Source: Promethearchaeota archaeon (GTDB lineage: Archaea; Asgardarchaeota; Thorarchaeia; Thorarchaeales; Thorarchaeaceae). Taken from it: DNA of 16,413 bases. The position numbers and the translations under genes were made by a program. The DNA is taken from positions 1 to 16,413 of the forward strand of contig JALVPN010000213.1 of NCBI GenBank assembly GCA_027031765.1, in the 5' to 3' direction. This document shows positions 4,864 through 9,182 of the stretch, in pieces. The notes under the pieces are model-generated. The model saw nothing but the letters and a program-made list of their open reading frames with translations, was not told the origin of the DNA and did no database searches. The first letter of the stretch is position 1; each line of letters opens with the position of its first letter.

Positions 4864-6330
4864 CTACCCCGTACTGTCATCCTCACGGATTGCATCTAGC
4901 ATGCCCTGGAACGCACGGGCCAGCTCTCCAATCTCGTCGTCCTGTTCCGTGTAGGACGGGTCGACCTGGAGGTGCGTCACATCCAGCTCCTCCTGTCGCA
5001 ACACGGCCTCCACATTCCGCATTGCGAGGCCCATGAGGTATTCAAGGGGCCGGGTCACCTGGTTTGCGACCAGCACCGCTACTGCTACTGCGAGCACACC
5101 ACCAACGGCAGTCACAAAGATGACGGCCGATGTGGCCTCAAAGTTCGCAGCCGCAATCCTCTCCGTCAACTGGTTGACAGGAGCAAAGACCTCGTCGGAG
5201 GGGACGATTGCCACGCACACATAGTCGCCCTTGCCCACCGGGGTCGCCACGAGGTATCTCTGTTCACCGTCGCGCGTGTACGTCACATTCCTGTACTCAC
5301 CGTCAGGCACAGAGGTTATTGTCTGCAGTGTCGTTGCATCGATGCCCTCGATGTCCGACAGGTATGGCAGGTGGCCCTCAGCATCTGCAGCCAGATAGTC
5401 CGCAGGTGTGAGTTCAGGGTGGGCCACCACCTCACCGGAACGCAGGAGCAGTGCGGCATAGCCGGACTCCAGCACCTGCACATTGAGGATCCTGTCACGT
5501 ATGTCGTTGTAGGGGATGTCGACAGCGACCATCCCCTGCAGCTGGTGGCCCGGGCCATAGATTGCACGGCCGATGGATATCATGAGCACCTGTTCGATGG
5601 GGTCAAAGTACGGGTCTACGAACACTATGTCCCCGTTGCCCGCAACAATGTCCTGATACCATGGCTCATCCGGTGGGAAGAATGCGGTCGAGCGCCGTGC
5701 CCGGTCGAGGTCTGAACCACCGAATATGCTGCCGGGATAGTTGATGAACAGGCCATCGGTGAACGCAACGTACAGCCACCGGAGCTCGGGCATCTGTTCG
5801 TGGACGGAACGGAACATGATGTCGATGTTGGAAATCCGGTACAGCCTGTCAGCGAGAGCAGCCTCGGCTACCGAGTAGTTCGTGGAGTCGGTCCCCACAA
5901 TGTACCAGCTGCTGTACGTCCACGACACGTTGATACCATAGTTGGGGTCGTACGCTATGTCACTGGGGTGAGGGCCCTTGGACGAGTACTCGAAGAAGTA
6001 GTCGTAGTAGACCGGTCGTGGGGACACTGTGGAGGTGGACCCCAGCAGGGCCTCACACTCGCGGGCGAGCGCACGCACCACAGACTCCGCACTCGCAAGC
6101 TTCTGGTTGACTACCAGTGCCGTCTTCTCGGAGGTTGCCACCATGTTCCGTGTGACCTGGGTCTCCAGTGCCTGACTGCTCTCCGTCGTTGTGAGCCCGC
6201 CAATCATGTTGATAAAGCCCAGTGAGAGGACGCCGGTGGCGGTCAACGAGGCCACCGTGATGAGGAAGAACGTGACAATCACATTCCTCTTGAAGCTGCC
6301 CTTCTTCTGTATCCGCACTCGACTTGACAA
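4864..6330 (-). CDS. Membrane sensor TM-dCache-TM-HAMP with no output domain
   Basis: 488 aa. TM ~aa17-43, extracytoplasmic Cache (WLYVAF..GLFINYPG, EPWY, PYFD, ISIGRAI, VAVDI, GYAALL..SGEVVAHP), TM ~aa403-424, then HAMP (VTRPLEYL...DEIGELARAFQGM) ending at the C-terminus. TTG start with AGGAGGTGA RBS 7 nt upstream. Confidence 0.88.
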   Translation of the reverse strand: MSSRVRIQKKGSFKRNVIVTFFLITVASLTATGVLSLGFINMIGGLTTTESSQALETQVTRNMVATSEKTALVVNQKLASAESVVRALARECEALLGSTSTVSPRPVYYDYFFEYSSKGPHPSDIAYDPNYGINVSWTYSSWYIVGTDSTNYSVAEAALADRLYRISNIDIMFRSVHEQMPELRWLYVAFTDGLFINYPGSIFGGSDLDRARRSTAFFPPDEPWYQDIVAGNGDIVFVDPYFDPIEQVLMISIGRAIYGPGHQLQGMVAVDIPYNDIRDRILNVQVLESGYAALLLRSGEVVAHPELTPADYLAADAEGHLPYLSDIEGIDATTLQTITSVPDGEYRNVTYTRDGEQRYLVATPVGKGDYVCVAIVPSDEVFAPVNQLTERIAAANFEATSAVIFVTAVGGVLAVAVAVLVANQVTRPLEYLMGLAMRNVEAVLRQEELDVTHLQVDPSYTEQDDEIGELARAFQGMLDAIREDDSTG

Positions 6331-6337
6331 CTCGTCG

Positions 6338-6346: not shown

Positions 6347-9182
6347 AGTAGTCCACGGTGCTCCCACCCACCTCAAGCTGGGCCATGAGCACTGCTGCCT
6401 CCTTGAAGGCATTCTCAATGTCGCTCTTCACGTCTGCTGTGTCCACCACAGAGATATACTGGCCCTGGGGCACGTTCTCGCACACTGACTGGAGCAACTC
6501 CTCAAAGGTCATCCTCTCACCGGTGGTCGGAGATATGACCTTCTTGTCGACCGGCATCCGGAGTTCCTCGCCGACCCCGATTATGATTAGGAAGACATCG
6601 AGGTGCCGGTTCCTGACGAAGTTCTCAACCGTCCGGCGGTTCCGCTTCTTCTGGCGGTCGCGCTCCGTGAAGATCCCCTCAAGGTAGTCGAGAGAGTACT
6701 TCTCTGACGAGTTGTCCTGGCCATCGGTCAGCGCAATTATCCAGCGGTGCTCACTGGACTCAAGGCTGTCCAGCTGTTCCAAGGCGTGGCCCAGGGCATC
6801 ATAGAATGCCGTAGCGCCATTTGGCCGACGCAGGCCGTCCAGGGCCCGCCATATCGGGTTCTCACGTGGGTCGTCATACTCGCCTCTACGTGTGAGCGGC
6901 AGGACCTCCTGGTATCTGTCGTTAAATATAGTAATCCCGACCTCGTCCTGAGGGTTCACCTTTGAGTCAAGGATTTCCTGCGCCCCGCGGATTGCTGCGA
7001 GGATTCTGCGCTGTGCATTCATGCTCCCGGAGTAGTCAATCACAAAGACGACGCTCTTCTTGTACTGGATTGAGCGGTACAGACGTTCGGCCTCGCGGCG
7101 GACTTCATGGCTCGGTTCGTCCAGCATGTCGAGGACATCCGCGAGCTCGCGCATTGCGAGGACGACCAGTGGATACTCCTCGGTCAGATTGCCGAGGCGC
7201 ATGCACTCACGGAACGAGTGTTCAGCATCACGCCACTGGCCCTTGGCCACGAACAGCTCGCCCATGTGGAAGTGGATGTATGCAAGGGAACGGTTGTTGT
7301 CGTCGGCCTCAGCAATCCGTTTCGCCTCTTCAAAGTGTGACAGGGCCTCGCTGTGACGCCCCTGTCGCATGAGTATAAGGCCAGTGGCATCATGACGTCT
7401 TGCAAGGCCGCCGGTGTTATTGAGCGACATGTCTATCGCCTGGGCGTCCTCAAGGAGCTTCAGGGCCTCGTCGTACTCATTTAGGTCCATCTTCACAAGT
7501 GCCATGTTGTGGTACACCGACGCAATCCTGAGCATGGCATCACGCTCGTCGCGGCCCTCTTCCTTTGACTGCTGGAGCAGACGCTGGGCAATCTCCAGTG
7601 CACGCTCATAGTACTTCAGAGCGTTGCCATGGTCACCACGCTGGCGGTACACGTTGCCGATGTTGAGACACATCGTCTGCTGGCCGACCTCGATACCAAG
7701 CCGTTCGCTGATCTCCAGCAGGTTCATGTAGTTGGACAGCGCACGGTTGAGGTCCCCCCGGACGAAAGCGGCGTTCCCAAAGCGGCAGGCCTCTTGGAAG
7801 CTCAACAGTGCATCGACCGTGCTGCCGACCTCCTCAAACATGGCGCCGGTGGCCGTGACCCCTCTGGTGAAGTCCTGACGCGACATCTTCTGCACCATGT
7901 GCGTCATCTCGCGGATCGGTTCGACAACGGCACGGGCCCTGCGGAACGAGACCCCTGCCACCACGGTACCGACGACCACAAGCACGGCACCAAGTGCCAT
8001 CAACAAGGTGCTAGTGCCCCGGACGACCTGTTGGAGCATCGCCTGTGCCGGCGCCACCACCTCGTCTGCAGGCACCACCACCACAAGTACGAAGCCGGTG
8101 CTTTCCACGCGGGACGAGGTCAGTAGCCAGCGCTCGCCACCCTTGGTGAAGTACGTCTGGCTGCTGTTCTGGGACAGGAGCGTTGGGAGGGCTGTCGAGA
8201 ACTGGTTGCGTCCCTCGGTGTCCGTAGGTGCGAACTCAAGGTCAAGGATACTCTGGCTCTCGGTCGTGAAGTATGGGTGTGCAACGACGTGGCCGCTCCC
8301 GTCCAGCAGATATGCGTACCCGCGGTCAAGCACTTGGACATCAAGGACTTTGGAGTTGACCGTAGCCAGTGTGACATCAGCAGAGACGACACCAATCATG
8401 GTGCCGTTGTCAAAGTAGACGGGACGCCCCATAGAGATGACAAGACCGGTCGACGGGTCGCCATAGGGGGGTGTGAAAGCAATACTCGTGTTGTCTACTG
8501 CGATGGACGCTGCATTGAGATACCAGTTCTCAGACGACGGGTCATAGTCACCATCGTCGCTGAGGAAGTAGTCGAGCTTGTCGAATGGGTAGTTCCTCAT
8601 GAGGTGGCTCGGACAGAGAGAGGGGTTGAATGTCATGTACAGCCAGATGTAGTCCGAGTTGGCGTCGTGGAGGGCCCTGAACACGTTGTCCATATTGCTG
8701 GAGACGTTCAGGAAGTACTCGGTGCGCGTGTCAAGTGTGAACGGGTCACCAGGTGTCGGGTACCTGTCACGTGGCATGTAGTAGCAGCTGACATCGAAGG
8801 AGATGTAGTCGGAGGAGTAGGAACTCTCACTATGGAGACCGGGCACCACCTTGGCACTGTGGGCGTACTCCAGGAACGGGTCCCAGAAGTAGCTGTACTG
8901 CGGTGTGGCATTCAGCCGTCCGTTGAAGAGCGCCTCACAGTAGTCCTCCATCACGTACACGCCGTCATAGTAGCTCTGGATGCGCTCATCAATGAACGAG
9001 GCCACATCATCCGACACACGCCTCAGATTTGCGACCTCCTCGTCCTCAAGGGCCGACGCCGCTAGGGCTGCGTTGTCATTTGACACGCCAAGGATGGTCC
9101 ATGTCGACACAGCGGAAATCACAATGATTGGGATGAGCGTTACAGTCGTGAATGCGAGCACAATCCGCCGGGAAATCCTCAT
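6345..9182 (-). CDS. Membrane receptor TM-dCache-TM-HAMP-TPR repeats-vWA (intact MIDAS)
   Basis: 945 aa. TM aa7-33, Cache aa~35-385 (WLYMTF, NYP, ENWY, PPYGD, ISMGRPV, SADV, GYAYLLD..GHVVAHP), TM aa~392-412, HAMP aa~413-466. About 5-6 TPRs at aa~467-705 (NIGNVYRQRGDHGNALKYYERALEI etc.). vWA from aa709 with D716-Y-S-G-S720, T791 (GATAFYDAL) and D820 (LTDG). GGGGTGGTG RBS. Confidence 0.9.
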   Translation of the reverse strand: MRISRRIVLAFTTVTLIPIIVISAVSTWTILGVSNDNAALAASALEDEEVANLRRVSDDVASFIDERIQSYYDGVYVMEDYCEALFNGRLNATPQYSYFWDPFLEYAHSAKVVPGLHSESSYSSDYISFDVSCYYMPRDRYPTPGDPFTLDTRTEYFLNVSSNMDNVFRALHDANSDYIWLYMTFNPSLCPSHLMRNYPFDKLDYFLSDDGDYDPSSENWYLNAASIAVDNTSIAFTPPYGDPSTGLVISMGRPVYFDNGTMIGVVSADVTLATVNSKVLDVQVLDRGYAYLLDGSGHVVAHPYFTTESQSILDLEFAPTDTEGRNQFSTALPTLLSQNSSQTYFTKGGERWLLTSSRVESTGFVLVVVVPADEVVAPAQAMLQQVVRGTSTLLMALGAVLVVVGTVVAGVSFRRARAVVEPIREMTHMVQKMSRQDFTRGVTATGAMFEEVGSTVDALLSFQEACRFGNAAFVRGDLNRALSNYMNLLEISERLGIEVGQQTMCLNIGNVYRQRGDHGNALKYYERALEIAQRLLQQSKEEGRDERDAMLRIASVYHNMALVKMDLNEYDEALKLLEDAQAIDMSLNNTGGLARRHDATGLILMRQGRHSEALSHFEEAKRIAEADDNNRSLAYIHFHMGELFVAKGQWRDAEHSFRECMRLGNLTEEYPLVVLAMRELADVLDMLDEPSHEVRREAERLYRSIQYKKSVVFVIDYSGSMNAQRRILAAIRGAQEILDSKVNPQDEVGITIFNDRYQEVLPLTRRGEYDDPRENPIWRALDGLRRPNGATAFYDALGHALEQLDSLESSEHRWIIALTDGQDNSSEKYSLDYLEGIFTERDRQKKRNRRTVENFVRNRHLDVFLIIIGVGEELRMPVDKKVISPTTGERMTFEELLQSVCENVPQGQYISVVDTADVKSDIENAFKEAAVLMAQLEVGGSTVDY

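Follow-up and report, generated by a model that had tools for sequence, protein, structure and literature searches.

What does a pair of adjacent receptors sense when the arginine that defines their closest relatives as amino acid sensors is replaced by glutamate in both of them, and how does this relate to the gene for a putative arginine decarboxylase that follows directly downstream? These questions are raised by a stretch of 16,413 nucleotides (nt) from an Asgard archaeon (contig JALVPN010000213.1, C213 in our numbering, of GenBank assembly GCA_027031765.1), which as a whole is referred to as the window in the following. It encodes two paralogous receptors, here named R1 and R2, each of which has a ligand-binding domain of the dCache_1 family, and a SpeA-like protein. 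A sequence-only reading of this DNA had taken the exchange of Arg for Glu in both ligand pockets as a sign that the pair senses amines such as agmatine or polyamines. As judged from sequence comparison, conservation and gene order, R1 and R2 probably sense an amine, agmatine being the most likely one. With a confidence somewhat above even we favour the explanation that both are retuned dCache_1 amine sensors for agmatine or a short diamine, and that they form one receptor which is tied to the supply of agmatine.

For most microbial receptors the ligand is not known, and only few sequence rules allow a ligand class to be predicted, the dCache_1 motifs for amino acids and amines being among them. 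The polyamine-type dCache_1 domains of McpU and TlpQ are described as uncharacterised as a class (PMC10589655, PMC10655580). In the Asgard pair a simple rule of one residue, Glu or Asp in place of Arg, goes together with a genomic correlate that is unusually clean, namely the SpeA gene beside it. If true, ligands could be predicted for a new receptor subclass as well, and there would be a first handle on Asgard signalling via a receptor without enzymatic output.

The ligand motif of R1 and R2 carries glutamate at the position of the defining arginine

The contig of the window is part of a genome of 2.95 Mb that is 95% complete, and the closest relatives of the proteins encoded in the window are labelled Thorarchaeota (Asgard archaea). 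Four tightly packed genes are found on the minus strand, namely an upstream gene of about 545 codons (up545), R1, R2 and the SpeA-like gene. By translation, R1 (6345..9182, minus strand) comprises 945 amino acids and R2 (4864..6330, minus strand) 488 amino acids. The TTG start codon of R2 at 6330, on which the numbering of the R2 residues rests, is located 14 nt past the stop codon of R1 and is preceded by GGAGGTGA. The gene for the SpeA-like decarboxylase, an enzyme dependent on pyridoxal phosphate (PLP), occupies 3003..4856 (minus strand). Its probable start is the ATG at 4856, 7 nt past the stop codon of R2; the longest frame, starting from 4895, would overlap R2. Among the sequencing runs listed as containing 3003-9182 there is no RNA run, the only one being a DNA run that may represent the source sample. 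R1 and R2 are the sole dCache_1 matches in the whole genome, and with 67.6 bits and 56.7 bits, respectively, both score above the Pfam cut-off of 45 for PF02743.

In the amino acid-sensing class of these domains (dCache_1AA; PctA, PctB, PctC, Mlp24, Mlp37, Tlp3 and CtaA), Y121, R126 and W128 contact the ligand's carboxyl group and are followed by Y129, while Y144 and D173 contact its amino group; in PctA the R126A exchange lowers the affinity 61-fold and D173A abolishes binding (PMC8915833). The motif quoted in the sequence-only reading matches this published AA_motif. The N-terminal half of the motif reads Y213-DPSS-E218-N-W220-Y221 in R1 (8520..8546, minus strand; Glu codon GAG at 8529-8531) and F217-FPPD-E222-P-W224-Y225 in R2 (5656..5682, minus strand; Glu codon GAG at 5665-5667). 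The half that binds the amino group consists of Y240-G-D242 (8457-8465) and D269 (8376-8378) in R1, thus covering 8376..8465 on the minus strand, and of Y241-F-D243 (5602-5610) and D271 (5518-5520) in R2 (5518..5610, minus strand). Translation and a motif scan reproduced exactly the residues and GAG codons that had been read from the sequence before, and the scan likewise confirmed that the amino-group residues are kept in both receptors.

The alignment with solved structures leads to the same register. In a phmmer search against the chains of the PDB, the segment TAFFPPDEPWY of R2 was aligned gap-free with AGYDPRSRPWY of PctA (5ltx), which pairs E222 with R126, F217 with Y121, Y241 with Y144 and D271 with D173. 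Residues 212-305 of R1 align with positions 112-201 of the PctA chain, the same stretch as in the case of R2, and E218 and E222 share one column in the MAFFT alignment. The exchange of Arg for Glu is therefore found in both paralogues, as had been proposed. By homology to R126 of PctA, Glu218 and Glu222 would be located in the ligand pocket. Between the two halves of the motif there are 15 residues in R2 (Y225-Y241) and 18 in R1 (Y221-Y240), compared with a published spacing of 13-17 residues for which the counting of the paper may differ from ours. Members of dCache_1AA have the same fold as R1 and R2, are their best sequence matches in the PDB and share the register of the motif with them, and the aromatic residue at Y121 as well as W128, Y129, Y144 and D173 are kept in R1 and R2. 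The two receptors differ from this class in that its defining Arg126 is Glu in both of them.

The substituted site is never basic among the orthologues

Orthologues were scanned with one genome per species, which yielded 71 loci, 66 of them from Asgard metagenome-assembled genomes; the residue counts refer to the R1 and R2 frames recovered from these loci and include the window. Position 218 of R1 (n=53) is Glu in 46 sequences and Gln in 7, and position 222 of R2 (n=61) is Glu in 31, Asp in 24, Gln in 5 and Asn in 1. Arg or Lys was found at this site in none of the 53 R1 and none of the 61 R2 orthologues. Y213, W220, Y221, D242 and D269 are invariant in the 53 R1 sequences, in which Y240 is Tyr in 48, Phe in 4 and Asn in 1 case. 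Furthermore, Y225, Y241, D243 and D271 are invariant in all 61 R2 sequences. The first aromatic residue of the R2 motif, Phe in the window, is Tyr in 30, Trp in 23 and Phe in 8 orthologues; the family consensus of R2 reads Y-DPRG-E-x-W-Y as compared to Y-DPRS-R-P-W-Y in PctA. Since the site is never basic in the orthologues while the W, Y, Y, D and D residues around it are invariant or nearly so, the match to the motif is more than a chance similarity. When the two receptors of one locus are considered together (53 loci with both), the residues at the R1 and R2 sites are E/E in 21, E/D in 20, Q/E in 7, E/Q in 4 and E/N in 1 of the loci. Thus, an acidic residue is present in at least one member of all 53 pairs.

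This pattern bears on the possibility that the Cache domains no longer bind a ligand at all and are part of a structural or scaffold complex in the membrane, in which case the residue change would be neutral drift. An enzymatic output domain is indeed missing from both receptors, and in one more distant family (f14) R1 is without part of the pocket. However, W, Y, Y, D and D of the pocket show little or no variation despite an overall identity of only about 50% among the orthologues, and the substituted site is limited to E, D, Q and N in the family of the window, with an acidic residue in every pair. As drift would not give such a pattern of conservation, we regard a loss of ligand binding as very improbable.

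No Arg-type pair was found beside SpeA

Scoring the co-occurrence of Glu-type Cache genes with speA had been put forward in the sequence-only reading as a way to examine its proposal. In all 55 loci with at least 1 kb of downstream sequence, the end of R2 is followed within 400 nt by the start of a SpeA-like frame, the median gap being 43 nt (measured between tblastn ends). R1 is located directly upstream of R2 in 52 of 53 judgeable loci, a count that takes in L046 and L051, where R1 has 39% identity and is thus below the 45% filter. The sole locus without R1 is L011 on a complete chromosome (CP070658.1), where an Asp-type R2 is followed by SpeA and neither R1 nor the propeller gene corresponding to up545 is present within 8 kb upstream.

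Among 301 sampled Asgard genomes, an R2-type match was obtained in 100 and a SpeA-like match also in 100; 85 genomes have both, 15 have R2 only, 15 have SpeA only and 186 have neither. No statistical test is offered for these numbers because the sampled genomes are related to each other. For the 82 genomes in which both matches were listed, R2 and SpeA are adjacent (gap of at most 300 nt) in 69. A gap of 2.9-3.0 kb was found in 4 of the 82, with R1 in between and SpeA in divergent orientation (loci L072, L075 and L088); in the remaining genomes the gap is 8.8 kb (1 genome) or the two genes are on separate contigs (8 genomes).

As a contrast set, 20 loci from more distant Asgard families were analysed. 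In 11 of them SpeA is found beside the receptor pair in colinear or divergent orientation. The R2 site is E or D in all of these 11, and the R1 site is E, Q, Y, F or S. Six further loci contain pairs without SpeA nearby: L077 and L087 with the canonical YDPRxRxWY in both R1 and R2, L073 (the second pair in genome G244) with the canonical Arg motif in R1 and Asp in R2, and the three f9 loci L083-085 with Asp in R2. The other three loci, L081, which is of the Arg type and where adjacency to SpeA is not judgeable, and two loci of family f12, end at a contig edge. In the f12 genome G118 (L076), R2 and SpeA share a contig but are 8.8 kb apart. No SpeA-like gene was detected in the five genomes tested from the families f9 and f24, which are 85-95% complete, or, as counted by type, in the two Arg-type genomes tested, which are 85-89% complete; among the sampled genomes, a SpeA-like match was present in 0 of 68 from f9 and 0 of 7 from f24. 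With respect to the bacterial relatives L067 and L068, the motif-pattern scan matched L068 alone, which is of the Arg type, and no SpeA-like match was obtained for either locus. Taken together, no pair linked to SpeA is of the Arg type; in this data set the acidic residue is necessary for the link, but insufficient alone.

The Arg-type pairs also have to be considered in view of another explanation, according to which R1 and R2 still sense an amino acid, for example arginine as the substrate of SpeA. It would then be bound differently, the Glu residue holding its guanidinium or amino group and its carboxylate being held elsewhere. Both in sequence and in fold, amino acid receptors are nearest to R1 and R2, among them the arginine-bound PctB and Mlp24; five of the six motif positions are retained, and it would make sense physiologically to sense what the adjacent enzyme uses as its substrate. 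However, the amino acid class holds the carboxylate by R126, W128 and Y121, with the severe effect of the R126A exchange described above (PMC8915833), whereas a Glu at the position of R126 would repel it, and the canonical-Arg pairs of other Asgard genomes were not seen beside SpeA. We consider it quite improbable that an amino acid is the ligand.

Phylogeny of the Cache domains

A maximum likelihood tree of 51 Cache domains was calculated with the quick search of IQ-TREE, with the motif columns omitted and without a root. The 26 R2 sequences are split from the 25 R1 sequences with a value of 99 in the Shimodaira-Hasegawa-like approximate likelihood ratio test (SH-aLRT). The separation of R1 and R2 in the tree means that their duplication is older than the split between the Arg and Glu types. 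In each half of the tree the SpeA-linked sequences form well-supported clades (99-100), and the Arg-type sequences are found outside of them. If Arg is the ancestral residue, it was probably lost in parallel in both paralogues; this polarity was assumed on the basis of the Arg present in PctA and in the bacterial relative L068, the tree itself being unrooted.

Comparison with known amine sensors

The structural models point to the same relatives as the sequence searches. The model of R2 is superposed on PctA with a Z score of 20.8 and a root-mean-square deviation of 2.2 Å over 234 residues; further fold matches are PctD (Z 20.4) and TlpQ (6fu4, Z 18.1). Of the bacterial chemoreceptors with a dCache_1 domain, McpU of P. 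putida (6F9G) and TlpQ of P. aeruginosa (6FU4) respond to polyamines and histamine and bind agmatine with dissociation constants of 0.48 µM and 0.15 µM, respectively (PMC6234866). TlpQ binds the primary amine of its ligand by Y208, D210 and D239 and the second nitrogen by D210 and Glu170 (PMC6234866). The Y208/D210/D239 triad matches Y240-G-D242...D269 of R1 and Y241-F-D243...D271 of R2, a pattern that is also found in PctA and is thus not class-specific. Further features of McpU and TlpQ are an acidic pocket with a Glu on the second nitrogen and a large sensor domain; the average dCache sensor has 268 ± 17 residues (PMC6234866), whereas the sensor regions of R1 and R2 between the transmembrane (TM) helices are longer, with about 350 residues each. 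No phmmer match to 6fu4 was obtained at E <= 1, and 6f9g is not among the 50 fold matches listed, which is no proof of dissimilarity. By analogy, R1 and R2 appear to be most like McpU and TlpQ in the way they would work, from which they differ in being archaeal.

The dCache_1AM domains (PctD, PacA, McpX and 3LIB of M. mazei) are also an amine-type derivative of the amino acid sensor, in which the half that binds the carboxylate is changed and the W/Y pair and the final Asp are kept, as in R1 and R2 (PMC10589655). These domains have a cation-pi aromatic residue, Y206 in PctD, two positions past the equivalent of Y144, and a further mark of the class is an insertion above the pocket with the R103-D133 salt bridge (PMC10589655). 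They form one branch, for which Halobacteriota are the only archaeal phylum reported, and they bind putrescine and agmatine weakly or not at all (PMC10589655, PMC10655580). PacA gave weak phmmer matches with E values of 0.21 and 0.0012. Membership of R1 and R2 in dCache_1AM was considered and rejected, as the position of PctD Y206 is D242 in R1 and D243 in R2; it was mapped by offset, starting from PctD A204 as the position of Y144 (PMC10589655). The exchange in the Asgard receptors thus looks like a route to amine sensing separate from that of dCache_1AM. The available text of the paper on the agmatine chemoreceptor PacG (PMC13215616) contains no rule for the Cache pocket. In a literature search whose coverage left most subscription journals outside, neither a SpeA-linked Cache pair from Asgard archaea nor a polyamine motif of the Glu type was described in any paper.

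Architecture of the two receptors

R1 consists of an N-terminal TM helix, the extracellular dCache_1 domain (8076..8561, minus strand, residues 208-369), a second TM helix, a linker of low confidence, TPR repeats and a C-terminal VWA domain. The TPR region (7113..7805, minus strand, residues from about 460 to 690) matches Pfam TPR_12 with 84.1 bits, in addition to other TPR families, and forms helical repeats with a predicted local distance difference test (pLDDT) value around 90 in the AlphaFold 2 (AF2) model. For the VWA domain (6705..7052, minus strand, residues 711-826) VWA_2 of Pfam scored 47.5 bits. Its residues D716-x-S718-x-S720, T791 and D820, which we take to be a metal-ion-dependent adhesion site (MIDAS), show no variation in 26 aligned R1 sequences. 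In R2 the dCache_1 domain is flanked by two TM helices, the second of which is followed by a HAMP domain (4882..5070, minus strand, residues 421-483; 24.5 bits, slightly below the cut-off of 25 bits), and nothing further was found that could serve as an output domain. Fused or longer forms of R2 did not turn up at E <= 1e-20, which is weak evidence against their existence. The DDEIGELARAFQGML stretch at the C-terminal end of the HAMP domain is invariant except for one position (E469, conserved to at least 90%). Whereas the output of dCache_1AA receptors is a chemoreceptor, kinase or cyclase module, R2 has only its HAMP domain and R1 has TPR repeats and a VWA domain.

The AF2 models of R1 (pLDDT 74.6) and R2 (pLDDT 79.1) both show the dCache topology, and in both of them a helix begins right after Glu218 and Glu222, respectively. 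A complex of R1 (residues 1-465) and R2 (residues 1-488) was modelled with a score of 0.64, the best control having 0.00; of 157 solved complexes 116 attained this mark, compared with 2 of 215 mismatched pairs. The pLDDT of the partners is at least 78, and the agreement of the contacts between runs at least 93%. The modelled interface extends along TM1, the long helix, TM2 and the HAMP domain.

As a side observation, R1 combines two domain types, dCache_1 and VWA, that are also present in the alpha2delta subunits of eukaryotic calcium channels and in CACHD1, and when the Cache part is compared by fold, these eukaryotic proteins rank among its best matches. Order and topology of the domains differ, the VWA domain of R1 being C-terminal and cytoplasmic, and the likeness may be a coincidence.

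The SpeA-like protein and agmatine metabolism

The SpeA-like protein matches Orn_Arg_deC_N of Pfam with 83.8 bits, and a full-length alignment with E. coli SpeA (3nzq) was obtained at E 6e-56. The stretches YPVKVNQ, HVGSQ, GGGLPIDY, EAGR, DITCDSDG and GAYQ, presumably the catalytic motifs of fold-III decarboxylases, including those around the PLP lysine, are conserved in it. With the two NCBIfam models for speA the protein scores below the cut-off in each case (NF003763, 323.6 with a cut-off of 369; TIGR01273, 299.8 with a cut-off of 624.1). The sequence-only reading had described the next gene as one that makes agmatine and is located 7 nt downstream of the receptors; the spacing holds for the ATG at 4856 and the SpeA-type motifs are intact, whereas arginine as the substrate is inferred because both speA scores are below the cut-off.

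The gene in the window is the sole Orn_Arg_deC_N match in its own genome, in which the pyruvoyl-dependent arginine decarboxylase PdaD was not found. Furthermore, no arginase/agmatinase, agmatine deiminase, spermidine synthase or S-adenosylmethionine decarboxylase (AdoMetDC) was found; since the genome is 95% complete, the absence of these enzymes is unproven. TiaS and deoxyhypusine synthase are present. TiaS uses agmatine to form agmatidine in tRNA-Ile2, and in some haloarchaea agmatine is used in the modification of aIF5A. In the organism of the window, the polyamine pathway appears to end at agmatine, which would appear to be an end product needed for translation and not a polyamine precursor.

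A divergent SpeA-like gene with 33-40% identity to that of the window is present in some Thorarchaeota genomes. In the family of the window it was observed without an R2 match in G016, G046, G093, G120, G152, G209, G281 and G287, and G155 contains both kinds of SpeA-like gene (the divergent one at G155:C126:7582-9393). This gene may be a second paralogue that is independent of the receptors.

Weighing the amine reading

Several observations weigh against amine sensing as described here. With respect to the substituted site, Q or N is found in 13 of 114 orthologues, so that the charge is not strictly conserved. In the families f27 and f14 the R1 site is Q, Y, F or S, R1 of f14 is furthermore without the P-Y-x-D segment, and in the f12 pairs (L076 and L090) the site is W or F in R1 and Q in R2, without an acidic residue in either; they may represent a further shift of the ligand. 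With respect to the linkage, pairs of the acidic type occur without SpeA (Asp in R2 of L073 and L083-085), and 15 sampled genomes contain a SpeA-like gene without an R2 match. As the SpeA-linked pairs form one clade per paralogue, the association of Glu with SpeA may reflect very few events. The domains of R1 and R2 are nearer to amino acid receptors than to TlpQ, both in fold (Z 20.8 versus 18.1) and in sequence, and with its sub-cut-off scores the SpeA-like protein has arginine only as a putative substrate. Finally, dCache dimers have already been solved, so that the good score of the modelled complex may reflect its likeness to them, and the model does not tell a heterodimer from a homodimer. 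Amine sensing as put forward in the sequence-only reading is therefore supported in part: its premises hold, the site is non-basic and the synteny with SpeA is conserved, whereas the negative charge is not strictly kept and acidic-type pairs are also present in f9 genomes in which no SpeA-like gene was detected.

These exceptions would fit with a ligand that is no organic amine. It could be a metal cation or ammonium on the Asp, Asp and Glu residues, or else a neutral polar molecule; SpeA would in that case be linked to the receptors by regulation, but not via its product. In some lineages Q, N, S or an aromatic residue is tolerated at the site, acidic-type pairs are present in genomes in which no SpeA-like gene was found, and dCache_1 domains bind many ligand classes (PMC10589655), all of which argues in this direction. 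However, dCache_1 domains that bind other ligands than amino acids are reported to have lost the conservation of the AA motif, including Y144 and D173 (PMC8915833), whereas these two positions are invariant or nearly so in R1 and R2. The aromatic replacements would, in a cation-pi reading, still suit a cationic organic ligand. In our view, a ligand that is not an organic amine is improbable.

Proposed mechanism

From the residue identities, the homology to PctA, the conservation, the synteny and the phylogeny, we infer the following for the favoured reading of R1 and R2 as amine sensors, including the class and identity of the ligand, the heterodimer and the regulatory link. Both receptors would be paralogous extracellular dCache_1 sensors derived from the amino acid-sensing class. 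In their membrane-distal module, the primary amine of the ligand would be bound by the retained Tyr, Asp and Asp. Because the half of the motif that binds the amino group is intact and the former carboxylate clamp is now itself a carboxylate, the ligand would be expected to need a primary amine and no alpha-carboxylate. The pocket would thus reject alpha-amino acids and accept a cationic amine without a carboxylate, and a second positive group near Glu218 or Glu222 would be favoured. TlpQ and McpU are examples of dCache_1 domains in which such chemistry operates. The most likely candidate is agmatine, the putative product of the next gene, otherwise a short diamine or perhaps another cationic ligand.

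R1 and R2 probably act as one membrane receptor, likely as a heterodimer. Its cytoplasmic output would be the non-enzymatic docking arm of R1 formed by the TPR repeats and the VWA domain. The signal would be passed on by protein docking, speculatively to the propeller/zinc-ribbon protein encoded by up545 or to SpeA itself. A single tight operon with the only arginine decarboxylase detected in the genome could in this way link the level of amine outside the cell to the supply of agmatine, which would be needed for agmatidine in tRNA-Ile (via TiaS) and perhaps for the modification of aIF5A. In its most far-reaching form, this proposal describes a kinase-free heterodimer that reads extracellular agmatine or a diamine with two former amino acid pockets, both of which lost their Arg in parallel, and controls the sole source of agmatine by docking of the TPR and VWA arm of R1 together with the propeller/zinc-ribbon protein instead of phosphorylation or second messengers, thereby gating the formation of agmatidine in tRNA-Ile and possibly the modification of aIF5A. 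We regard this extended version as rather unlikely. If true, it would be a second independent route from amino acid to amine sensing besides that of dCache_1AM, combined with a type of Cache output that has not been described yet.

Neighbouring genes

The conserved gene up545 (9253..10890, minus strand, start codon uncertain) has only weak Pfam matches. Its product is soluble and contains propeller-like repeats and a CxxC...CxxC zinc ribbon, and its C-terminal part apparently comprises two winged-helix-like segments. Of 66 archaeal loci searched by tblastn, 50 have up545 upstream of R1; of the 16 loci without it, L011 has 8 kb of upstream sequence and several others visibly end at a contig edge. 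The up545 protein may be the cytoplasmic partner of the receptor.

Downstream of SpeA, after 53 nt, follows a gene for a PP-loop ATPase-like protein (2143-2949, minus strand), the weak matches of which to QueC, Asn_synthase, NAD_synthase and ATP_bind_3 are confined to its N-terminal 80 residues. Its frame was recovered in 28 related loci, and in most of these the homologue likewise comes after SpeA, that of L058 being located about 3 kb further away; a tie of this gene to the use of agmatine is only a thought. On the plus strand, a gene for a protein of the histone deacetylase family (10675-11838) is located in divergent orientation beside up545, an arrangement conserved in most related loci. 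It is followed on the same strand by genes for a histidine kinase-like sensor protein with PAS and HATPase_c domains (12074-13480), a radical SAM protein (14253-15071) and a proteasome alpha subunit (15247-15990).

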